From sequence record PZ379549.1: 46,532 nucleotides of DNA. One strand, written 5' to 3'. The notes under the pieces are model-generated. The model saw only the letters and a list, made by a program, of their open reading frames with translations, was not told where the DNA came from and searched no databases. The translations under genes were made by a program, and so were the position numbers. Below, in pieces: positions 9,172 through 41,014 of the stretch (position 1 is the first letter of the stretch; the number at the start of each line of letters is the position of its first letter). Origin of the DNA: a phage.

Positions 9172-9246
9172 TTTTTACTCCTCTCGTTTGCGTGAAGTAA
9201 CTATAAGCCATCCTTGGCGGCACGTCTTTAGCAAAACGTGCTATTT
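9172..9246 (-). promoter_or_regulatory. box-hairpin-(-10)-leader unit upstream of moron
   Basis: Box at 9226-9246 overlapping TerL stop (TAG), hairpin GCCAAGGATGGC, TATAGT, CACGCAAACGAGAGGAG, ATG 9171. Confidence 0.4.
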
Positions 9247-28006: not shown

Positions 28007-28090
28007 TTTAAATATCCCGACATTTTGTTAGTTCGTTGCATTGCTGTATAATAACAACTATCGACCCTATTGTTTAACAAAAAATGCTAT
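28007..28090 (-). promoter_or_regulatory. box-(-10)-leader unit upstream of helicase
   Basis: Variant box 28073-28090, TATTAT, CAGCAATGCAACGAACTAAC. Confidence 0.35.
28024..28051 (+). promoter_or_regulatory. sigma70-like promoter for HTH gene
   Basis: TTGTTA (28024-28029), 16-nt spacer, TATAAT (28046-28051). Confidence 0.35.
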
Positions 28091-28102: not shown

Positions 28103-28492
28103 ATGTGTGAAATTGACAAGCGAACTATCAACGGCAATAACGGAACCATCCGCACGCAAGACAAGAAACAGCGCAAACGACCGTCAGGCTACTACGTATT
28201 GAAAGATGAAGTAAAGGCTGGGCTAAGAGCTCGTCTGGAGATGGTTCTTGACTTCTACGGCACGAAGGCCAATATCGCCAAGCAGTTAAATGTATCTCAC
28301 CAGACTGTAGAACAATGGTTTGATCGCGGTATGATTTCGGCTCGAGGCGCCCAGCGAGCACATAATGCGTACAAGAGAAATAAGGGAGGGTTCCGAGCTA
28401 CTTTCTGCCGACCAGACCTGCAATTTGACGGTAACGGTAAGCCTCTGACGCTTACGATGCAAGAAGCGCCACATGCTACGCGTGGTTACTGA
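28103..28492 (+). CDS. HTH DNA-binding protein (candidate regulator)
   Basis: HTH-like GTKANIAKQLNVSHQTVEQWF; first gene of rightward unit; a +1 frame continues 36 codons past the stop. Confidence 0.45.
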   Translation: MCEIDKRTINGNNGTIRTQDKKQRKRPSGYYVLKDEVKAGLRARLEMVLDFYGTKANIAKQLNVSHQTVEQWFDRGMISARGAQRAHNAYKRNKGGFRATFCRPDLQFDGNGKPLTLTMQEAPHATRGY

Positions 28493-28630: not shown

Positions 28631-29110
28631 ATGAACTGGCATGATTATTTTTACTATGTAGATGGCAAATTGCATTGGAAGATTAGCACTGCAAGACGTG
28701 TTAAGGTTGGCGATGAGTGCAACTCACTATCTACATCTGGCTATTACAAAGTGTCTGTTAATGGCTTTAGGACTTATGTACATAGAGTTGTGTGGGAGAT
28801 GTTTAATGGAGAACTTCAAAATGGCGACTACATTGATCATATAAACCATAACAAATTAGATAACAGAATAGAAAACCTAAGAGTAACAACAAATCAAGGT
28901 AACTCAAGAAATTGCAAGCTTAGCGTTTTATCAACAACTGGTTATTGTGGAGTGGCAAAGCTAAATCACGGAAAATTTAAGGCTCACATCAAGGTTGACG
29001 GCAAGCAGCTACACCTTGGGAACTTCGATACTCCAGAGCGGGCGTATAAAGTAAGAATTGAAGCAGAGGGAAAATACAACTTTCACGAAAATCACGGGTT
29101 AAGCAAATGA
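28631..29110 (+). CDS. HNH homing endonuclease with AP2-like domain (paralog of 100-585)
   Basis: Same architecture: DHINHNKLDNRIENLRVTTNQGN then GVAKLNHGKFKAHIKVDGKQLHLGNF. Confidence 0.7.
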   Translation: MNWHDYFYYVDGKLHWKISTARRVKVGDECNSLSTSGYYKVSVNGFRTYVHRVVWEMFNGELQNGDYIDHINHNKLDNRIENLRVTTNQGNSRNCKLSVLSTTGYCGVAKLNHGKFKAHIKVDGKQLHLGNFDTPERAYKVRIEAEGKYNFHENHGLSK

Positions 29111-32678: not shown

Positions 32679-33116
32679 TCAGAATGGAATATCTCCGTCG
32701 AATGTGTTTTGCTGTTGTTGTTGTTGTTGTTGCTGTTGATGTTGCGGTTGATGGCGCTGTTGTTGCTCTGTATTTTTATGTTGCTGTGCACCCTCACCAC
32801 GCTGACTAAACTCAAGACGAGGATTGTTCATGTTAATTGTTATGTAAGTCTTGCCATCTTTATCTCGAACATCTAATGCTAACGTCTCACAACTTACGCT
32901 AACAATCTTCCCTTCCTGAAACGCTTCGTTATACCATGTAAGCATTGATTCCTTTGCGAAGAAGACGGCACGATAGTTGCTATACTGAGATTGACCATCT
33001 TTATCCTTGTAACGCTCACTTAAATCAACCGCGTACATCTTCCAACTGCCATTTGCATTCTGACCTTCTTTAGTGAACGGAGCGCGACGGATAACACCAG
33101 TGATTACATGACTCAT
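32679..33116 (-). CDS. ssb: single-stranded DNA-binding protein
   Basis: OB-fold-like N-terminus, Gln-rich linker, canonical acidic C-terminal tail ending DGDIPF. Confidence 0.8.
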   Translation of the reverse strand: MSHVITGVIRRAPFTKEGQNANGSWKMYAVDLSERYKDKDGQSQYSNYRAVFFAKESMLTWYNEAFQEGKIVSVSCETLALDVRDKDGKTYITINMNNPRLEFSQRGEGAQQHKNTEQQQRHQPQHQQQQQQQQQQNTFDGDIPF

Positions 33117-33156: not shown

Positions 33157-33807
33157 TTAGAATGTGTCGATTTCTTGAGATTGTACTTCAACTTTTTCTT
33201 CTTGAACAGACTTTTGTGCAACCTGTTTAGGTTTTGCAGGATTGAAGCCGTTAGTTGCATTAGCCTGAATTTCTGCCTTACGCTCAATGATGTGAGGTTC
33301 AATCACCAGCCAACCAGCTGAATCAAGAGACTGCTTGGCTTCTTTGTATACATCACGCAGGTCATCAAGAGTGTTGCACTTAGCTAAATCTTTCTTAAAT
33401 GAGTTGATACCCTTAACTGCAAGCTGACCATCATCATCTGCCTGGCTCAATCCTAATGCCGCTGTAATTGCATAACGGCGAGCATATGTAAGTGATGAGC
33501 CGTAACCTTGAGCATCTTGCTTGCTGATTGGGACGATTGTCAGGAAGCTGACCCACTCTCCAGATTCTGCATGATAGACAGTTGTTTCAACCTTAATTCT
33601 AGTTGTGGCTTCATCATCAATCATGCCTTGAAACATGACCAGGCCGCTATCTGCAAGGCCAGGCTCTACAGCCGCCAGTACGTCTTCCAGGGTGGCGTAC
33701 CTGTTCTTTAGGTGCGAGTTCTGCTTTGACTTTTCAGCCTTTGCAAACTTTGATTTGGCCTCAAATAAAGCCTTCAATACTTGCTTGTTTTGATCTGAAG
33801 TTTTCAT
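33157..33807 (-). CDS. Erf-family single-strand annealing protein
   Basis: Erf-like core ...QGYGSSLTYARRYAITAALGLSQADDD... Confidence 0.65.
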   Translation of the reverse strand: MKTSDQNKQVLKALFEAKSKFAKAEKSKQNSHLKNRYATLEDVLAAVEPGLADSGLVMFQGMIDDEATTRIKVETTVYHAESGEWVSFLTIVPISKQDAQGYGSSLTYARRYAITAALGLSQADDDGQLAVKGINSFKKDLAKCNTLDDLRDVYKEAKQSLDSAGWLVIEPHIIERKAEIQANATNGFNPAKPKQVAQKSVQEEKVEVQSQEIDTF

Positions 33808-33884
33808 TAACTATCTCTCTTTCGTTTAAGTGGGGCAATCATACCTCACCTTTTGATTTTGTCTTTAGCAATTAGTGCTATTTT
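33808..33884 (-). promoter_or_regulatory. box-(-10)-leader unit upstream of erf
   Basis: Box 33863-33884 containing exonuclease stop TAG, TATGAT, CACTTAAACGAAAGAGAGA. Confidence 0.4.
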
Positions 33885-34849
33885 AGAAGTTCTTGATACT
33901 GCTTACTTACCCACTCAGGAATCATCAAATCTTGCTCTGTAATCCCATTGCTATACCCAGGCCATACATCAAGCTCCTTGCACTGTTTGTATGTTGCTAG
34001 TGCCTCACAATATTGTAAACGACCAATGCGAAGCTGTTCATCTGTAAGCGTGTAGCTCATTGGTAAGTAAGGCTCCGTTTTTTCCTGCGCCAGAAGTCGA
34101 ACCACAACCTTACGCTTCTCGTTAAATGCCTTCACGAACAAGTCACGCTGAAGGCTCATTTTGCACAGGTATCCATGGTCATAAGCTGACTTGCCAAATC
34201 CTCTCGGGCTTGCGTCCGCCGTCGTCTTGTAGTCAGTAATGAAAACCACGCCATCAACAACATCCACGTGATCAAGCCTAACCTTAACACCACACCCAAG
34301 AATCTCACCAAAGATTGATAGCTCTTTCTGTGCTGTTGGTGAGTTAATAATCGCATCGTAAGCTGGGATATTAGTAAGAACCTCGCGCATTGAGATTACC
34401 TTATCGTAATCTTTCGCAGTAACGAGCTCTTTGCCACTAATTAACGCCTCAGCGCTCTCCTGCTGCTCAATTAACCATTTAACAGGCCAATCCTCACCAG
34501 ATTTATACATCATCTCCACGAGCTCGCTATATCCCTTCCCTGACGTGCCTGAAACTCCAACTTTTTTAAGCGCTGCGGATAAAGCCGTTTGGCTAGTAAT
34601 CAATCCTTCCACTTCGTCAAAGTCAGTAGCTCGCATGTATGTTGAGTCAAATACCTCGCGCTCTAGCATCATGCAGTGACTTAGTGTGCCAAATTTAAGT
34701 GCTGCGCTAGAGTTATTGCGCTGCTTAAACTTCCATTTAGCTGGTGAGGTAGCAAGAATCTCAGCCAGTGAAGAGCCAGAGATATGGTCTTGCTCTTCGT
34801 GATAGGATTCATTTGTTAGCTCGTCGTTCGTATAAACTTTAAATGTCAT
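33878..34849 (-). CDS. PD-(D/E)XK-type recombination exonuclease
   Basis: 323-aa ORF upstream of erf with D...ITDYKT nuclease-like motif. Confidence 0.5.
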   Translation of the reverse strand: MTFKVYTNDELTNESYHEEQDHISGSSLAEILATSPAKWKFKQRNNSSAALKFGTLSHCMMLEREVFDSTYMRATDFDEVEGLITSQTALSAALKKVGVSGTSGKGYSELVEMMYKSGEDWPVKWLIEQQESAEALISGKELVTAKDYDKVISMREVLTNIPAYDAIINSPTAQKELSIFGEILGCGVKVRLDHVDVVDGVVFITDYKTTADASPRGFGKSAYDHGYLCKMSLQRDLFVKAFNEKRKVVVRLLAQEKTEPYLPMSYTLTDEQLRIGRLQYCEALATYKQCKELDVWPGYSNGITEQDLMIPEWVSKQYQELLK

Positions 34850-34852
34850 GGT

Positions 34853-35047
34853 TCAATCCTTAATTTTAACAATCTTAACTGTTTTCAAATCTTCCTCAGT
34901 GAAGTACCCGGTCAGCAACTCCTTGGCCTCTTCCTTTGTCTCGAATTGGTCGGCTTCAGATTTGTTGGTAGTGTATCCAGCTGGGCCACCAAAGTAGCAG
35001 TCTCCGAACAGTGGGTTGTTTTTCTCTTTGATAATGTAGTAGGTCAT
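34853..35047 (-). CDS. hypothetical protein
   Basis: 64-aa ORF. Confidence 0.4.
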   Translation of the reverse strand: MTYYIIKEKNNPLFGDCYFGGPAGYTTNKSEADQFETKEEAKELLTGYFTEEDLKTVKIVKIKD

Positions 35048-35356
35048 TTCTGTATCTCTCTGTTTGCTTGCTTGCTTGCTTTCGATGGTTTAACTATATA
35101 TTCAGCGCCGCACCCAGTCCAATTGGTTTCGCCAATCGTTGATTTAAGTTTACGCGTGAATTCTTGTAATTCCGTGTGTACATTGGAACTAGTTACGTTT
35201 TTTGGTACCTGAGCCAAGCTATAGCTCAATGTAAATAGTGCGTATATCATGTATATCATTTATTGCTGAGGGTGCATTGGTATAGCTACCGCGCAATACT
35301 GTATAAATCCACATGATATTAAAATTATAACCGAAACACTCCATAAGAGCAGTTAC

Positions 35357-35439
35357 ATGATATACATAGTAATATATATAATAATAATAATAAGAGTAAA
35401 AGGTTGATATATATATATATTTTAATGTAACCAATGCGT
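35357..35439. repeat. AT-rich control module copy B, includes (TAA)n and (TA)n tracts
   Basis: About 85 percent identical to 16408-16495 by eye. Confidence 0.6.
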
Positions 35440-35515
35440 AAATTGGCGTAACATTGCGTATATCATTTTTCGCGGATGAGATTGCATACATCGAGTTACA
35501 TCGGTTACGCGTAAA

Positions 35516-35591
35516 CATAGCACTAATTGCTAAAACTGATCCGCAAAACCGGGTATAGTTAGCAACACAAACAACGAGAGAGAATTTTAAA
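35516..35591 (+). promoter_or_regulatory. box-(-10)-leader unit upstream of methyltransferase
   Basis: Box 35516-35535, TATAGT, CACAAACAACGAGAGAG. Confidence 0.4.
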
Positions 35592-36282
35592 ATGGTTATC
35601 TGGTCTTTATTTGATGGTTCTGGTCTGGCGGTAAAGGATTGGGCTGAAGCTGGCCACACTTGCTACTGTTTCAACTTTGATGAGTCTGACCACGGCAGCT
35701 ACAGTGACTTAAATGCAAAGGTTGAGCATGAGAACATCACATACGTTAACGCATGGATAGATGCTGACTTCGATTTTGATGTGAAACCTGATTTTATAAT
35801 GGCGTTCCCTCCATGCACTGACTTAGCCGTGAGCGGATCAAGACACTTTGAACGCAAGTGTACTAGCTAACCCTAACTTCCAAATTGAAGCTGCGGAGAC
35901 GTGCAAGATTGCTTTTAATCTTGCTGAAAAATACGGAGTACCATACATGATCGAGAACCCAATCAGCGTACTGTCATCACTTTGGCGAAAACCTGATAAC
36001 ACCTTCCACCCATATGAATACGGAGGCTATTTGCCGGAAGATGATTTACACCCGTTTTTTAGCGACCTAATAAAGCCAAAAGACGCATATCCCAAGAAGA
36101 CATGCATTTGGTATGGCAATGGGTTTAAATGGCCAGAGGCAATTCCAGTGGACGTTAACGGTGGATTCTCTGACCAATACAAGAAGCTAGGCGGGAAGAG
36201 CAATAAGACAAAGGTAATTCGCAGCCTAACTCCTCGCGGTTTTGCAAAAGCCGTCTTCATTGCAAATAGCACCAATTGCTAA
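35592..36282 (+). CDS. C5-cytosine DNA methyltransferase-like, one frame change near 35848-35870
   Basis: Motif I LFDGSGLA, PC motif FPPCTDLAVSG, ENV-like MIENP; two overlapping ORFs in different frames. Confidence 0.5.
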
Positions 36283-36350
36283 AGACAAATCTCAAGGATG
36301 AGATATCATTACTCCATTGAAACGAAACACACCTTCTAAGGAATACGAAA
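36264..36350 (+). promoter_or_regulatory. box-hairpin-(-10)-leader unit upstream of cor-like gene
   Basis: Box 36264-36284 encoding MTase C-terminus NSTNC and stop, hairpin ATCTCAaggaTGAGAT, TATCAT, ACTCCATTGAAACGAAACACACC. Confidence 0.4.
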
Positions 36351-36596
36351 ATGACTAACTTAATCAAACTTTCAATCATCGCAGCAGCAGCAATCATGAT
36401 GGTGGGTTGTTCTTCTGCTCCGCGTCCTGACGGATGGTGTGCAACGCAAGCAAACGGCGTGTGCGTGGCTAAATGGGAAAATGGTGTGGTTGTACCGTCT
36501 GGTGAAGTTGATGTGCGATACGCTGGTATTGAGAGCAAGGCTGGCGGCGGTTACGGTGGCTCTGTTGCTGACCATGGGTCTAAGGAGTGGAAATAA
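36351..36596 (+). CDS. cor: Cor-like outer-membrane lipoprotein (superinfection exclusion)
   Basis: 81-aa ORF with lipoprotein signal and lipobox MMVGCSS; adjacent to tail fiber genes. Confidence 0.55.
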
Positions 36597-37558
36597 TGCC
36601 TCAAGGAATATTGATTGACCTTAATGATGGAAGGCCACCTATGGAAATAACGGCAGGATTAAGAGCGCCCGCTGTGACTGGCTCAATAAATACCAATGGA
36701 CTTTCGACGCCAGCATCATCATGGGATTTTGGTTTAACCATGTCCCCAGGCTCAACAGCATTCTGCCTTCCAACAAAGGCTGTGCACGTTGACGCTTATG
36801 ATGTTGTACCTGAAGTTTATTATATGAACGGGTTCCAGAAGGTAAATGACGGAACTGGCAGGATAACGCTTAGTGACTTCAATGGCGCAAGAGGTCGTAT
36901 AATTGACTTTGCTGGAAATTGCTTTGAAATACTCCCAGCCTCGTCTTCATCAAGCCCAGGAATACTGGTTGAGAACTCAACTGACTTTTTGGCAATTTCA
37001 AGCAATTCGCGGTTAATGTCTGCGGCATGGGTTGGTGGAATACAGGTTAACGGCGCCGCCTCACTACCAGTCAGTGGGATTCCATTTGGTAAATGGGATA
37101 ACCCAAACGTTTCTCTGGAGAGCGACGGTAATACAATTTGGTGCCGCAACATAAACTACAGCGGCATAGATGACGTTGCAGCAAGTACTTACGTACAGTT
37201 AGTGATATTCAGGAATGACCCTCCAGTAGCTGGCCCAGGACTCACAATGTCTAATAGTTCTGGACAGATTGTTTTTTCAAGCGTCAGGCGACCGTTCGTG
37301 CTTGGTGGCTTTATACAAATAACCAATGGTTTCCAGTCAATAAATGGAGGGTTCTTCCCACTGCTCAGGTGCGGCGCTACAACAAGAGTTACTGGAGGGT
37401 ATAACAACTTAAGGTACAAGGGAATATGCATGTCTGGTGGTGCCGTAAGGGCAGTTCCAGGCACTGTGATAGGGAACTACTCAACGCAGACGGGGGCCCA
37501 ATTCCCATTCGACACAAACATATCAATGGCTCTACCATTCATACCAAACTTCTACTAA
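36596..37558 (+). CDS. hypothetical tail-associated protein
   Basis: 321-aa Gly/Ser/Asn-rich ORF convergent with J; TAATG overlap with cor stop. Confidence 0.4.
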   Translation: MPQGILIDLNDGRPPMEITAGLRAPAVTGSINTNGLSTPASSWDFGLTMSPGSTAFCLPTKAVHVDAYDVVPEVYYMNGFQKVNDGTGRITLSDFNGARGRIIDFAGNCFEILPASSSSSPGILVENSTDFLAISSNSRLMSAAWVGGIQVNGAASLPVSGIPFGKWDNPNVSLESDGNTIWCRNINYSGIDDVAASTYVQLVIFRNDPPVAGPGLTMSNSSGQIVFSSVRRPFVLGGFIQITNGFQSINGGFFPLLRCGATTRVTGGYNNLRYKGICMSGGAVRAVPGTVIGNYSTQTGAQFPFDTNISMALPFIPNFY

Positions 37559-37565
37559 AAGAAAA

Positions 37566-37581
37566 GGCCCCGAAAGGGGCC
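37566..37581. terminator. bidirectional terminator hairpin
   Basis: GGCCCC-gaaa-GGGGCC flanked by A/T runs between convergent genes. Confidence 0.75.
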
Positions 37582-37588
37582 TAATCAT

Positions 37589-40500
37589 TTACCACACTCC
37601 AACTACAACCCTTCCACCATTCGGTAAATTAACTGTAATTCCATTATTGTTAATCTGAACAGTGTTGTTGGTTCCGTTAAACGCAAAGTTGCCGTTACTT
37701 GCGTACAGACTACCCCTTACAGTTGCATTGTTAAGTTCCGCACTGCCTGACTTATCAATGGCCCAACCCTGAGAACCAGCCACGTAGTTATTAGATTGAA
37801 TCCGGTTACCAATCTTCGCGTTAGTGATTGAACCATCCTGAATCACTGCGCTTTGAATGAATACCTGATTACCTTCAACTACGAAAGGCAATGACCACTG
37901 ACCGGATCCAGAGCTAATGCCGTTACTGATTGCTAACCTGTTAGCATCAAAGATGACCTGACTACGAACATTGCCATCAGAACCAGTTAGCTCCATACTC
38001 ATGCCAGAACTGTACTCAACGCCATTGTATTTGAGGCCAAGTTTAATCCCGTACTGAGCACCAATTGAATCGGCAGTAACGTAAGTGTCCAACTTCTCAT
38101 TTAACGCAGCCTCATTATCACCTAGCCTTGCAGATAAAGCAGTGTCCGCAGTGGTCCTTGCTTGCGTCTCTTCCGCTAGCGCCGTATCAATCCTTGTCAA
38201 TGAAGCTACAATCTCATCATCAATCTGCGCCTTAAGCTGCGTCAGAGCCTCTACGCGAGCCCTTTCTTCATCGGCGATAAGATTCACAGCCTGAACAAAT
38301 TCGGCCTTCCTCTTGCCGTTTTCCTTCGTCATTCTACGCACGTCACCATCATTAGCCAGGGCGTTCTCAATTATTGATTCCGCTTGCGCCTGAATAGCTC
38401 CGTTTGACTCAATGGCATTCTGTTGGAGATACTTGAACCCATCTGAGTTTTCTATATCAACCTTAATATCACCAATGATTGACGACACATCATCGCTTGC
38501 CATACCCCTTACAAAATCAGTCCATGGTGAGACGTTACCAATCTTGTCAATCAGTCGCGCCCTGTACCAGATGACCTTTCCAGCAGGAAGTGTAGTATGC
38601 CAGTACTCGTAACTCGGGTAAGGCACCAGAGTCAGAAGGCTAGCATTCTCTGGTGTATAAGTACCATCACCATTGTCGGCTACTTGCTGCAATTCAGTGT
38701 ATGACGTATCGGCTGAGTTTTCAGGAAATCCCCACTTAACCCTAATGCCGAATATTTCATCATCTGAAGCGGTGATTACTGTAGGTGAAGAAGGGGTCCC
38801 AATCTTGCCTGTGAGGCTTACTGAAACAATGTCAGACCATGCGGATACGTTTTCAGTATCAGAAACGGCCCTTACGCGAACCTGGTAAATTCCGGCATAG
38901 ATACCTTCAATATCAACCTCTGTGCTTGCTGTGCGCGGCACGTTAATCCAGTTTCCGTTCTCCTTGCGCCACTGTACCGTGTAGGTTTTCGCGTACTGAA
39001 CCTTGTCCCACGTGATTACCATTGTCTCAACTGATAAACCCTGAACAACCTTACTGTAACTGCTAACCTGAACATTCTCGGGTGCCAGTAATGTATCTGG
39101 CTCCACGATTGAAGTTGGCCTGTCCTGAATGTTTACGCCGTAATCAATCTCGTCGTATTTGTTCGGGTCGTACTCAACTGCGGTAATCGTGTAACCAAAC
39201 GCATCATCTCCATCGCTGTCTGCTTTTTGAATACCGGTCACAACATATTGCTGAAGAGCAAGATTTTCCTTATCAATCGCAAATACTGTGTCAGGCTGAG
39301 GAGTAAAGCTAAACGCTGTATTAAGTTGCAGCGTCATACCATCTTCAGATACAGATGCAATGGTCCTGTACTCCGGCATTCCATCAGGCTTGTTTATTAG
39401 AATCCTGTCGCCAGCAGTAGCATCAATCTTAAATGGCACAAAAACTTGCAACCCACTTACTGACTCGATACGACCAGAAAGGTTAAGGGTGTAGTTGCTA
39501 GACCATGCCTGGTCATTAACTGCAATAACCTCACCAATCATTGGAATCATACCTTCCAGACCAGTAGTGAAACTAATAGTCTCGCTGCGAATGTTCGTCT
39601 TTAATAACCAGCGCCCGCGGCGGTTTGCCTCACTCCTGCGAGTACATCCAATAGCTGTAAGGTCGACCGGGTTGTAACCAAAACGCCTTGTTGCCTCTAA
39701 CTCGAATACTGGCTCAACATCCTGTTGGTATGAGTTTTCAACGTCATCAAACTGAACGTTGGCAACCGTGTAAAGTGACTTATCGCTACCAAATGTACGG
39801 TTGAACAATCCATCAACAACGTTGTCATTGGTGAATACGTACGATGGTTGACGCGGCTTATCGACAACAATCCCTATCTGCTCGCCGTCATAGAATGTCA
39901 GCCCACGGAAGATAGAGCAAATATCACGGATTACCTGATATGCTTCAACTTTCTGCTGAATGACAACATCACACAGGTAGCGCGGCTCAACTCCACCCTT
40001 ACCATCTGGAACCATCTGGTCACAGAATTGCGCCGCCTCATACAGACCCCACTTATCAATAGTAATGCCAAGCTCTCGCTGGTCAAGTCCGTAACGCTGA
40101 TTCGTCACCAAGTCGTAAAGAACCCACGCCGGGTTATTGGAATACGCCATCTTAAAGGTGCCGTTCCAGGTTCCGCTGTAAGTCCTTGTCTCTGGGTTGT
40201 AGTTAGTTGGAACGCGAATCAACTTCCACTTCTTCTTGATTGAAATCGTCGGGATTCCGTTAGGGAAGAGGTCAGAACTGAACTCAACGTAAACCAGCGC
40301 TGTAAGTGGGTAGCGGAATTTCGCATCAATTACTTCCTGATAGGTCGTAATTTGCATATTGTTAACCAGCGTCGAACTTTCTGAATCTGCCGTGATCTTA
40401 CGAACCCTCACCAACGCACTCGAGAACTCAGCAGGAAGGTTAACCCTGATACTTCTGTCGTACCCGCTAGTTGTCTTGCCATTAGCTACTCCGCGCGTGT

Positions 40501-41014
40501 ACTCAGTGTATGTAGCGCCATCAACGGACAGGTCAATCGCATACTCGCAAGTGGTACCGTTAAGATCTCCGTTACTTTCCTGATTAATCAGACGAGGCCA
40601 AAACAGCTTAACCCTAATCGCTGATAGCTGGGTGTTATTAACAGCAATGATGTAAGGAGTTGAGTTTTTAATCTCCCTGTTCACTTGCACTTCCGAGTTA
40701 GCACCCTCTAGCCCGGCAATGTAATCCTGACTCTGTGTGCCAGGGCGAAACTCTGCCGTTACACCCTCGTAGTTGTATGTGCCATTCTGGTTCTGTACAG
40801 GAACGTCAGCAAGGTAAAGGTCCTTTAGGGAGAATGAGCTATCAACCTCACCATCAGAAACAGCTAGCAAAACCTTAACCTTGTTTACGGATATCAGGTT
40901 ATCAGGCTGCTCTACAGGTTGGTGCTGCTTTGGCTGTCCGCCCTTACTTCCATAAATCTTAATTTCTTCCGCCATATCACATAGCTCCGCATTTGTTTTG
41001 ACCATTTGTGCCAT
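37589..41014 (-). CDS. host specificity / central tail fiber protein (lambda J-like)
   Basis: 1141-aa ORF at distal end of lambda-like tail module after I, K, L, M. Confidence 0.8.
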   Translation of the reverse strand: MAQMVKTNAELCDMAEEIKIYGSKGGQPKQHQPVEQPDNLISVNKVKVLLAVSDGEVDSSFSLKDLYLADVPVQNQNGTYNYEGVTAEFRPGTQSQDYIAGLEGANSEVQVNREIKNSTPYIIAVNNTQLSAIRVKLFWPRLINQESNGDLNGTTCEYAIDLSVDGATYTEYTRGVANGKTTSGYDRSIRVNLPAEFSSALVRVRKITADSESSTLVNNMQITTYQEVIDAKFRYPLTALVYVEFSSDLFPNGIPTISIKKKWKLIRVPTNYNPETRTYSGTWNGTFKMAYSNNPAWVLYDLVTNQRYGLDQRELGITIDKWGLYEAAQFCDQMVPDGKGGVEPRYLCDVVIQQKVEAYQVIRDICSIFRGLTFYDGEQIGIVVDKPRQPSYVFTNDNVVDGLFNRTFGSDKSLYTVANVQFDDVENSYQQDVEPVFELEATRRFGYNPVDLTAIGCTRRSEANRRGRWLLKTNIRSETISFTTGLEGMIPMIGEVIAVNDQAWSSNYTLNLSGRIESVSGLQVFVPFKIDATAGDRILINKPDGMPEYRTIASVSEDGMTLQLNTAFSFTPQPDTVFAIDKENLALQQYVVTGIQKADSDGDDAFGYTITAVEYDPNKYDEIDYGVNIQDRPTSIVEPDTLLAPENVQVSSYSKVVQGLSVETMVITWDKVQYAKTYTVQWRKENGNWINVPRTASTEVDIEGIYAGIYQVRVRAVSDTENVSAWSDIVSVSLTGKIGTPSSPTVITASDDEIFGIRVKWGFPENSADTSYTELQQVADNGDGTYTPENASLLTLVPYPSYEYWHTTLPAGKVIWYRARLIDKIGNVSPWTDFVRGMASDDVSSIIGDIKVDIENSDGFKYLQQNAIESNGAIQAQAESIIENALANDGDVRRMTKENGKRKAEFVQAVNLIADEERARVEALTQLKAQIDDEIVASLTRIDTALAEETQARTTADTALSARLGDNEAALNEKLDTYVTADSIGAQYGIKLGLKYNGVEYSSGMSMELTGSDGNVRSQVIFDANRLAISNGISSGSGQWSLPFVVEGNQVFIQSAVIQDGSITNAKIGNRIQSNNYVAGSQGWAIDKSGSAELNNATVRGSLYASNGNFAFNGTNNTVQINNNGITVNLPNGGRVVVGVW

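Follow-up and report, generated by a model that had tools for sequence, protein, structure and literature searches.

Organization of the Locus

The window, i.e., the whole analyzed stretch of 46,532 nucleotides of phage DNA, derives from a T1-like coliphage (Drexlerviridae, Braunvirinae-like). The nearest records in the phage collection are ES and AN_ECEAS, which align at ~94% over parts of the query, and there is no close match among them. A plus-strand block of four ORFs (35592–37558), comprising two methylase fragments, a lipoprotein, and a receptor-binding protein (RBP), is situated between leftward recombination genes and a leftward J gene, on which it converges. An earlier note on this DNA had described such an island with the same coordinates and orientations. 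The three genes listed there are confirmed as coding by family matches, but the methylase is represented by two ORFs, which brings the total to four. The locus contains the following features.

33157–33807, leftward: ERF recombination gene
33878–34849, leftward: PDDEXK exonuclease of the recombination module
35518–35534, plus: putative box promoter element 1, TAGCACTAATTGCTAAA, a conserved palindrome at the upstream boundary of the methylase cassette
35592–35870, plus: methylase N-terminal fragment, 92 aa, with motif I (FDGSG) and PPC at Cys75; phrog_757, aligns with the Dcm of JeanPiccard (Bas02)
35848–36282, plus: methylase C-terminal part in the +1 frame, 144 aa, with ENP, the KK pair, and LTPRGFA; phrog_757
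35859–35865, plus: frameshift site identified from alignments, AAGTGTACTAGC, compared with AAGCGC-CTTGC in Bas02
36267–36283, plus: putative box promoter element 2, TAGCACCAATTGCTAAA, a conserved palindrome and candidate promoter of the lipoprotein–RBP operon
36351–36596, plus: predicted Rtp45-family lipoprotein for superinfection exclusion, precursor of 81 aa; PF24052, PDB 9RPS chain D
36596–37558, plus: predicted LptD-type RBP, 320 aa from the ATG at 36596; PF20051 (DUF6453), PDB 9RPT chain C
37565–37582, no strand assigned: GC-rich hairpin (stem AGGCCCC/GGGGCCT, loop GAAA), a candidate terminator shared by the converging genes for RBP and J
37589–41014, minus: J-like tail tip protein, 1141 aa; matches to PF24801, PF13550, and PF09327, 79% identity to J of Bas01

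The layout of the locus is the same in JeanPiccard, OzMSK, ES, CEB_EC3a, ACG-M12, and AugustePiccard. Antisense ORFs of 91–146 aa inside and beside the block (35219–35659, 36257–36538, 36820–37152, and 37189–37464) lack PHROG matches and are not considered genes. The ORF at 35219–35659, which spans a conserved non-coding region, is labeled “membrane protein” in some records. A permissive Rfam scan of the interval 34800–37800 produced a single chance-level match (Atu_C8, E = 0.45), and no NCBIfam match was found for any of the three proteins. The RBP and the lipoprotein are assigned below through homology to proteins of solved structure or tested function.

The Receptor-Binding Protein and Its Partner Lipoprotein

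The last protein of the block covers the complete Pfam profile PF20051 (DUF6453; positions 1–291 of 291, E = 8.1e-138, 459.1 bits, cut-off 25) and is similar over residues 2–320 to chain C of PDB 9RPT, the Oekolampad RBP solved on LptDE (E = 6.2e-67, 45% identity). It is 99.7% identical to the RBP of ES, 93% to that of OzMSK, and, over the full length, 42% to that of Bas02. These values place it above the published thresholds for an LptD-type RBP, namely >30% identity and >99% coverage relative to the RBPs of phages with experimentally demonstrated LptD dependence. Such dependence has been shown for Bas02, while OzMSK does not plate on two lptD loop mutants; Bas01 additionally requires NupG, via its J protein. 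By homology, the 320-aa DUF6453 protein is predicted to be the receptor-binding protein itself. The suggestion of the earlier note that it might be a receptor-binding accessory is not borne out, given the end-to-end similarity to the Oekolampad RBP, and its description as Gly/Ser-rich is justified only in moderation (G 11.9%, S 10.0%). The details of binding could differ from those of Oekolampad, as the tip loops vary between alleles.

The gene immediately upstream encodes a small protein that matches PF24052 (E = 2.8e-40, 136.6 bits, cut-off 27) and chain D of PDB 9RPS (E = 7.7e-38), with 65 of the 75 aligned residues identical (87%). Direct reading of its N-terminus reveals K6, a hydrophobic core, and G-C20 within the lipobox MVGC, with Ser at position +2 relative to Cys20, i.e., a signal peptide, a lipobox cysteine, and an outer-membrane sorting signal. 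Residues 30–35, which in Rtp45-type proteins form a beta-sheet with LptD (PMC12685063), are CATQAN compared with CATQAS in 9RPS chain D, and both cysteines of the disulfide pair (Cys30 and Cys38) are kept. We therefore predict an outer-membrane lipoprotein that belongs to the Rtp45 superinfection-exclusion family and acts at LptD.

The earlier note had called this protein Cor-like. Exclusion at the level of the receptor is retained from that proposal, while the family is Rtp45 (PF24052) with its target LptD, and not Cor. Under the full Cor-type interpretation, the lipoprotein would inactivate FhuA-like receptors, and the Gly/Ser-rich accessory would merely assist a receptor-binding J protein. 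In its favor, the protein has a lipobox and adjoins J, as cor does in T1, one GenBank record calls a homologue “Cor superinfection exclusion protein,” and there is a weak similarity both to T1 Cor (pairwise BLASTP, E = 7e-6) and to the Cor PHROG phrog_1119 (E = 0.007). However, this similarity hardly extends beyond the signal peptide and the lipobox (residues 6–45 with a 10-residue gap for T1 Cor, residues 6–34 only for the PHROG), so that the alignment with Cor does not place the lipoprotein in the Cor family by sequence. T1 Cor itself, with only 17.7 bits, stays below the PF24052 cut-off, the 87%-identical homologue was solved on LptDE rather than FhuA, and the partner is homologous to an RBP solved with LptDE. 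Neither is the partner locus of the FhuA type: T1 ST31 and ST32 share no Pfam family with the DUF6453 protein. A phmmer search with the lipoprotein across the PDB at E-values up to 10 gave only Rtp45 and chance matches, and hence no similarity to Llp, chains of which are presumably present there. The Cor-type interpretation is contradicted by the two family assignments (PF24052 and DUF6453), and we consider it highly improbable. Even smaller is the probability that the DUF6453 protein is a host-expressed membrane or “moron” protein rather than a virion RBP. This would agree with phrog_1265, whose category is “moron, auxiliary metabolic gene and host takeover” and whose label, “membrane protein,” also appears in several GenBank records, but three receptor-genetics studies link the DUF6453 gene family to LptD dependence.

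With the assignment to an LptD-type RBP and an Rtp45-type lipoprotein, a mechanism can be proposed from the solved homologues. The Oekolampad RBP enters from outside the lumen of LptD, the essential LPS translocon, which is in an open state (PMC12685063). On the periplasmic side, Rtp45 binds to LptDE between LptE and LptM, and its hairpin is pushed up the barrel, displacing extracellular loop 4 by about 20 Å (PMC12685063); as a consequence, RBP binding is no longer possible. The RBP described here would bind the LptD channel in the same way as its solved homologue, probably from the tip of the J-like tail protein, which presumably serves as its docking platform; attachment via a conserved base containing the N-terminus has been suggested in the literature. 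In infected cells, the lipoprotein would block LptD, guarding against superinfection and saving progeny phage from loss on cell debris.

A Frameshifted Dcm-Like Methylase

Based on motifs, homology, and modeled fold, the upstream gene is predicted to be a genuine Dcm-like C5 cytosine methylase. Motifs I (FDGSG), IV (FPPC), and VI (ENP) are invariant or nearly so in an alignment of 20 homologues. Both ORFs match phrog_757 (E = 2.8e-32 for the N-terminal one; E = 1.6e-47 at profile positions 100–220 for the C-terminal one), while the scores against PF00145 stay below the cut-off of 22 bits (the N-terminal fragment reaches 19.3 bits, E = 8e-4, and the restored protein 16.4 bits). Single-sequence and profile searches of the PDB with the restored methylase were both empty, so the fold was tested on a predicted structure. 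For a homologue with 92% identity, the AF2 model (pLDDT 88.3) matches the catalytic domains of DNMT3A and DNMT1, and its top Foldseek matches are DNMT3A, DNMT3B, DNMT1, and MET1 (probability 1.0, TM 0.45–0.54). The restored protein shares 60% identity with the Dcm of phage KarlJaspers, whose residues C82, E128, K175, and K176 correspond to C75, E121, K168, and K169 here. The KarlJaspers enzyme methylates the msDNA of retron Ec86 and thereby triggers the Ec86 defense.

The reading frame of this gene is interrupted. One extra nucleotide is located at 35859–35865, inside a cluster of substitutions, and leads to a premature TAA (35868–35870) after 92 codons, with the rest of the methylase in the +1 frame. 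The gene has 691 nt compared with 690 nt in five full-length close relatives, and removal of any one of several bases at 35859–35865 restores an ORF of 229 aa. The C-terminal ORF lacks its own Shine-Dalgarno sequence. The frameshift truncates the protein after the catalytic cysteine and before ENP and the KK pair, and the gene as written most likely yields no active enzyme. Comparison with Bas02 shows 21 synonymous versus 6 non-synonymous codon differences in the N-terminal half and 42 versus 12 in the C-terminal half; given this strong excess in both halves, function was lost only very recently, if at all. The lesion may be a recent inactivation, i.e., the genotype of retron escapers, or a sequence error, and one sequence cannot separate the two. 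The methylase named in the earlier note thus keeps its identity, but DNA modification by this particular copy is doubtful; an anti-restriction role of Dcm-like methylases is not established for the family of T1-like phages.

It is credible, if somewhat unlikely, that the extra base is a sequencing or assembly error and that an intact Dcm-like enzyme methylates the DNA of the real phage. The best 120 of 3333 homologues are all 215–252 aa long, the codon differences from Bas02 resemble purifying selection in both halves, and CCWGG is not avoided in the genome (80 sites versus 57 expected). On the other hand, the insertion is situated outside any homopolymer, and the three substitutions within 8 nt around it look more like a real small complex mutation. 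Disruption of dcm is, moreover, a known selected genotype, since escapers of retron Ec86 carry a 1-bp indel or a deletion, and close relatives such as ES have no such gene at all. An extremely improbable alternative is that programmed +1 ribosomal frameshifting connects the two ORFs or that they encode a split two-subunit enzyme. The ORFs do share 23 nt, the second frame is free of stop codons from 35833 onward, leaving a window of 38 nt for the shift, and split C5 methylases occur naturally, e.g., M.AquI. Nevertheless, programmed frameshifting was rejected because the overlap contains no slippery motif, nor is there a prfB-like one. As for a separate subunit, the TTG at 35848 has no Shine-Dalgarno sequence, and the first in-frame ATG lies just two codons upstream of ENP. 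Finally, the close relatives all have collinear single ORFs, one nucleotide shorter.

Putative Promoter Boxes and the Cassette Slot

The palindromic box TAGCA-N5-TGCTA occurs 18 times in the window, compared with 2.2 occurrences expected. In its oriented consensus, it is followed about 21 nt downstream by a -10-like TATAGT. Inverted repeats upstream of genes, together with a putative regulator Rtp52, were reportedly described in the Rtp genome paper of 2006. At the present locus, one box precedes the methylase cassette, as is also the case in four related phages, and the second overlaps the last five codons of the methylase (NSTNC) and its stop; downstream of the latter we observed AAGACA-16-TATCAT. 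In phage ES, which lacks the methylase cassette, the equivalent of box 2 is the sole box. A generic sigma-70 scan yielded 8 sites versus 6.6 in shuffles, i.e., no excess, so the argument for promoters builds on the conserved box architecture, and both boxes are considered putative promoters on the basis of consensus and conservation. The earlier note had assigned a box promoter to each of its three genes; two are found (at 35518 and 36267), and the last gene has none.

The stop codon of the lipoprotein gene overlaps the start of the RBP gene in TAATG (36594–36598), with AAGGAG 8 nt upstream of the RBP ATG, and the two genes are predicted to be translationally coupled through this overlap. They would be transcribed from the box at 36267, probably also by read-through from 35518. 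The stop of the RBP gene (37558) is 30 nt away from that of J (37589), and transcription of the operon is likely to end at the intervening hairpin, which would be common to J. According to a terminator scan, this hairpin has seven pairs, six of them GC, with a run of T on the minus strand. The annotation of CEB_EC3a has a terminator in the same position.

Taken together, the block 35592–37558 very probably represents an LptD-type receptor-specificity locus of a T1-like siphophage, preceded by a swappable methylase cassette. It is a well-studied host-recognition module, the biology of which is already known, and it is ordinary except for the methylase lesion. The theme of host interaction, recognized in the earlier note, holds, as does the function given there to the lipoprotein, whereas the lipoprotein family, the accessory role, and the number of promoters had to be revised.

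The slot flanked by the box promoters holds other genes in related phages, or nothing. Among T1-like phages, its contents range from a Dcm-like methylase or an unrelated PF01555 methylase to DNA-binding proteins or no gene, as in the clean loss of the methylase cassette in ES. One might speculate that the 15-bp palindrome is a portable recombination junction for anti-defense cassettes in front of the exclusion–RBP operon, and that the frameshifted dcm and the cassette loss in ES are escapes from retron Ec86-type defenses. We offer this combined proposal tentatively and regard it as unlikely to hold as a whole; the recombination role of the box is inferred from six genomes only.

In practical terms, the locus allows the terminal receptor to be predicted as LptD from sequence alone, and, as LptD is an essential and conserved outer-membrane protein, such a prediction is useful for the choice and engineering of phages. 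The RBP–lipoprotein pair adds a further allele pair to a system solved structurally in 2025. Two small points are new, namely, that the Dcm-like methylase, known as a trigger of retron Ec86, is broken here and that repeated promoter boxes lie on both sides of the methylase slot, a hint at how such cassettes move. Neither alters current understanding.

Comparison with Known Systems

The RBP has the same length as members of the Rtp44/RBP-Oekolampad family (DUF6453; PDB 9RPT, 9RPW, and 9RQI) and is homologous to them from end to end, including the conserved N-terminal stretch ILID.NDGRP.MEITAGLRAP. In this family, too, the RBP gene adjoins gpJ and is accompanied by the same partner lipoprotein. 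The receptor-contacting loops are the variable part of the family, and, unlike the solved Oekolampad protein (45%) and that of Bas02 (42%), the RBP described here is the OzMSK/ES allele (93–99.7%). Similarly, the lipoprotein shares with Rtp45 (PF24052; 9RPS chain D) an identical signal peptide and lipobox, five of the six residues of the LptD-contacting strand, and both cysteines of the pair, but differs from it in the C-terminal third, where, as in the OzMSK and ES alleles, five residues (SKAGG) are inserted and there are several other changes.

Cor (T1, phi80, N15, and HK022) and Llp (T5) are likewise small outer-membrane lipoproteins encoded beside a receptor-binding gene, and, like the Rtp45 type, they act from the periplasm to block the receptor that their own phage uses. 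The target, however, is LptD for the Rtp45 type and FhuA for Cor and Llp, and the mechanism is steric loop displacement through the barrel lumen in the former and long-range allostery in the latter. The mature lipoprotein has neither family-level similarity to Cor nor a PDB match to Llp.

The methylase resembles KarlJaspers bas06_0055 (phrog_757), the retron Ec86 trigger, in the conserved catalytic cysteine, ENP glutamate, and KK pair. Both are short phage Dcm-like methylases (about 230 aa) with a DNMT3-like fold, and in both cases the 3′ end of dcm runs into a promoter box. In contrast to KarlJaspers, where the gene is located in the early region of small genes, the methylase here is split by a frameshift and resides beside the RBP locus.

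Finally, the boxes recall the PeSL (promoter-stem-loop) cassettes of T4-type phages, reportedly described by Arbiol and co-authors in 2010, in which repeated promoter elements likewise flank small optional genes and mark junctions of gain, loss, and exchange; the box considered here differs in sequence, being a 15-bp palindrome, and belongs to a different phage family.

Organization of the rightward block

The window is the genome of a T1-like coliphage, with its best DNA matches in Drexlerviridae/Braunvirinae, namely ES and AN_ECEAS (~94%), then Guelphvirus and Rtp-like groups. A rightward block at 35592–37558 is wedged, as the earlier note had proposed, between recombination genes (ERF and PDDEXK exonuclease) and a J-like tail tip gene, all of them leftward. 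The reading of this plus-strand island as three genes has to be amended, as it holds four ORFs, two of which are halves of one methyltransferase. Antisense ORFs within the block lack any family match.

Features of the block and its flanks
33157–33807, minus strand: ERF recombination gene
33878–34849, minus strand: PDDEXK exonuclease
35592–35870, plus strand: methyltransferase half 1 (92 aa)
35848–36282, plus strand: methyltransferase half 2 (144 aa, +1 frame)
36351–36596, plus strand: exclusion lipoprotein ORF (81 aa)
36587/36596–37558, plus strand: receptor-binding protein (RBP) gene (320 aa counted from ATG)
37565–37582: GC-rich hairpin in the gap between the RBP stop and the convergent J stop
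37589–41014, minus strand: J-like tail tip gene (matches PF24801, PF13550, PF09327)

Beyond the recombination genes, a minus-strand 145-aa ORF (32679–33116) lies where relatives have an annotated single-stranded DNA-binding protein, and its acidic C-terminal tail is preceded by a long poly-glutamine run (~11 Q). Two further minus-strand ORFs with an ATGA overlap (34853–35047 and 35044–35259) match two halves of phrog_35664 (143 aa), which is a single 143-aa gene in CEB_EC3a and two genes in ACG-M12 and the window.

Exclusion lipoprotein and receptor-binding protein

The 81-aa ORF matches PF24052, the Rtp45 family of superinfection-exclusion lipoproteins (2.8e-40), and 65 of 75 aligned residues are identical to Rtp45 itself (PDB 9RPS chain D; 7.7e-38). 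Its lipoprotein character, suggested earlier, is borne out by a basic N-terminus and hydrophobic core followed by the lipobox MVGC (Cys20) with Ser at +2. Both cysteines of the Rtp45 disulfide (Cys30 and Cys38; PMC12685063) are retained, as are five of the six positions in the strand pairing with residues 318–323 of LptD, the outer-membrane LPS translocon. Rtp45 docks onto LptDE from the periplasm, in the space between LptE and LptM, and sends a hairpin up the lumen that shifts extracellular loop 4 by as much as 20 Å, thereby blocking RBP binding (PMC12685063). The similarity to Cor, the FhuA-directed exclusion lipoprotein of T1, is confined to residues 6–34 in the PHROG match (E 0.007) and, in BLASTP against T1 Cor, to the signal peptide, lipobox and few next residues; T1 Cor itself scores under the PF24052 cut-off. 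A PDB search with the lipoprotein returned no match resembling Llp, the T5 counterpart.

The product of the last gene of the island had been described as a Gly/Ser-rich protein, perhaps a receptor-binding accessory. Judged by its homology to the RBPs of Oekolampad, OzMSK and Bas02 (JeanPiccard), this 320-aa DUF6453 protein (8.1e-138) is the LptD-binding RBP itself; Gly and Ser make up 22% of it. It aligns end to end (residues 2–320, 45% identity, E 6.2e-67) with PDB 9RPT chain C, the phage Oekolampad RBP, seen by cryo-EM inserted into open-state LptDE (PMC12685063). Identity to the ES, OzMSK and Bas02 proteins is 99.7, 93, and 42%, respectively; two lptD loop mutants are refractory to OzMSK, Bas02 resistance maps to lptD, and a 2026 screen of 255 coliphages specifically linked this RBP family (>30% identity, >99% coverage) to LptD. 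The N-terminus is the best-conserved stretch; the OzMSK authors found conserved residues largely on the RBP base, which includes the N-terminus, and suggested that through this base the RBP is built into the tail. DNA similarity to JeanPiccard ends ~60 nt into the gene, and therefore the remainder of the RBP is swapped as a module.

The neighboring J protein is 79% identical overall to that of AugustePiccard (Bas01), the latter being 28 aa longer (1169 vs. 1141 aa). Alignment positions 901–1000, around J residues ~900–1000, show 36% identity and include 33 gapped positions. As a 2026 preprint places the NupG-specific domain of Bas01 J roughly in this stretch, the window phage probably lacks this second specificity.

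Frameshifted methylase

Both methylase ORFs match phrog_757. Of the motifs, FDGSG and the catalytic PPC fall in the N-terminal ORF, and ENP, a KK pair and LTPRGFA in the C-terminal one. The methylase falls under the Pfam PF00145 cut-off (19.3 and 16.4 bits vs. 22), and sequence and profile searches of PDB gave no match; for a homologue with 92% identity, the AlphaFold model (pLDDT 88) matches the catalytic domains of DNMT3A, DNMT3B, DNMT1, and MET1.

The lesion is one extra nucleotide in a substitution cluster (AAGTGTACTAGC vs. AAGCGC-CTTGC in JeanPiccard and AugustePiccard), giving 691 nt vs. 690 nt in five full-length relatives. Deleting one base restores a 229-aa methylase, and the best 120 of its 3333 homologues are all 215–252 aa long. 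We lean towards inactivation of the methylase by this frameshift. Precedents exist in KarlJaspers, whose Dcm is 60% identical to the restored protein, with equivalents of C82, E128, K175, and K176 conserved: that Dcm methylates the msDNA of retron Ec86 and triggers this defence, and escapers carry a 1-bp dcm indel, a 2.2-kb deletion including dcm, or a mutation ahead of the dcm start codon. Synonymous changes exceed non-synonymous ones equally in both halves (21:6 and 42:12), and therefore the lesion is either recent or an error. The latter reading, in which the extra base is a sequence error and the methylase is intact, is possible, if somewhat doubtful. Recoding across the two ORFs is unlikely, because their overlap contains no slippery site.

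An anti-restriction role of the methylase, assumed earlier, is not established. In the BASEL study, carrying a methylase gene was not simply related to how well phages of this family resist restriction, and the Dcm target CCWGG is not depleted in the whole window (80 sites vs. 57 ± 7 expected from shuffles).

Box elements and the cassette slot

The box invoked in the earlier note is a real element: the 15-bp palindrome TAGCA-N5-TGCTA occurs in 18 copies in the window vs. 2.2 expected (e.g., at 9229, 12973, 14318, 15000, 17908, 22143, 25572, 33866, 35518, and 36267). In one orientation it reads TAGCAC[G/T]AATTGCTAAA, followed by ~20 nt, often with a small hairpin, and then a TATnAT-like (−10-like) hexamer; many copies have a CATCGAAACGA-like conserved leader ahead of the ribosome-binding site. 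The supposition that each island gene has its own box promoter holds for the methylase (35518) and the lipoprotein (36267), not for the RBP gene, which no box precedes; the lipoprotein stop codon and the RBP ATG overlap in the sequence TAATG, and AAGGAG precedes this ATG by 8 nt. KarlJaspers, which belongs to a different subfamily, carries 19 copies of the box over 50 kb. From its sequence context, the box resembles a promoter or operator used family-wide. Such inverted repeats were reportedly described in the 2006 Rtp paper, together with a putative regulator, Rtp52. In the window, the box at 28075 closely precedes a candidate transcriptional regulator (28103–28492; phrog_2856, E 7.6e-66), which an HNH endonuclease gene (28631–29110) separates from the primase gene.

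Content of the slot upstream of the lipoprotein gene
Window (35518–36283): Dcm-like methylase, split
JeanPiccard: Dcm-like methylase
OzMSK: PF01555 methylase, unrelated
CEB_EC3a: DNA-binding protein, 217 aa
ACG-M12: 101-aa ORF
AugustePiccard: four genes, dcm among them
ES: single box, no gene

In six of seven genomes, whatever is encoded in the slot ahead of the lipoprotein gene is bracketed by two boxes; the exception, ES, joins exactly at its lone box. Both unrelated methylases (Dcm-like and PF01555) end in NSTNC-stop, with codons supplied by the downstream box. The pattern in these seven genomes, together with the shared box-encoded ends, suggests that the box may serve as a junction for gain, loss, and exchange of cassettes.

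The non-coding divergent region at 35230–35520 is conserved above its flanking genes among six phages. It contains a stretch of 85% A+T that includes (ATA)n and (TA)n runs, GCGTA three times in exact 10-nt phasing (35436, 35446, 35456), and recurring GTATATCAT and GTTAC motifs, and resembles an origin or multi-operator region; some GenBank records annotate a questionable ORF, "membrane protein", over this region.

Comparison with known systems

The frameshift and the box-bounded slot are the sole local peculiarities of the island. The methylase is a member of a known family, and the core, an exclusion lipoprotein with an LptD-binding RBP, is an already known and structurally solved system. The earlier term "Cor-like" is apt for the job of the lipoprotein, as exclusion is the function it has in common with Cor, whereas family and target differ, being PF24052/Rtp45 and LptD.
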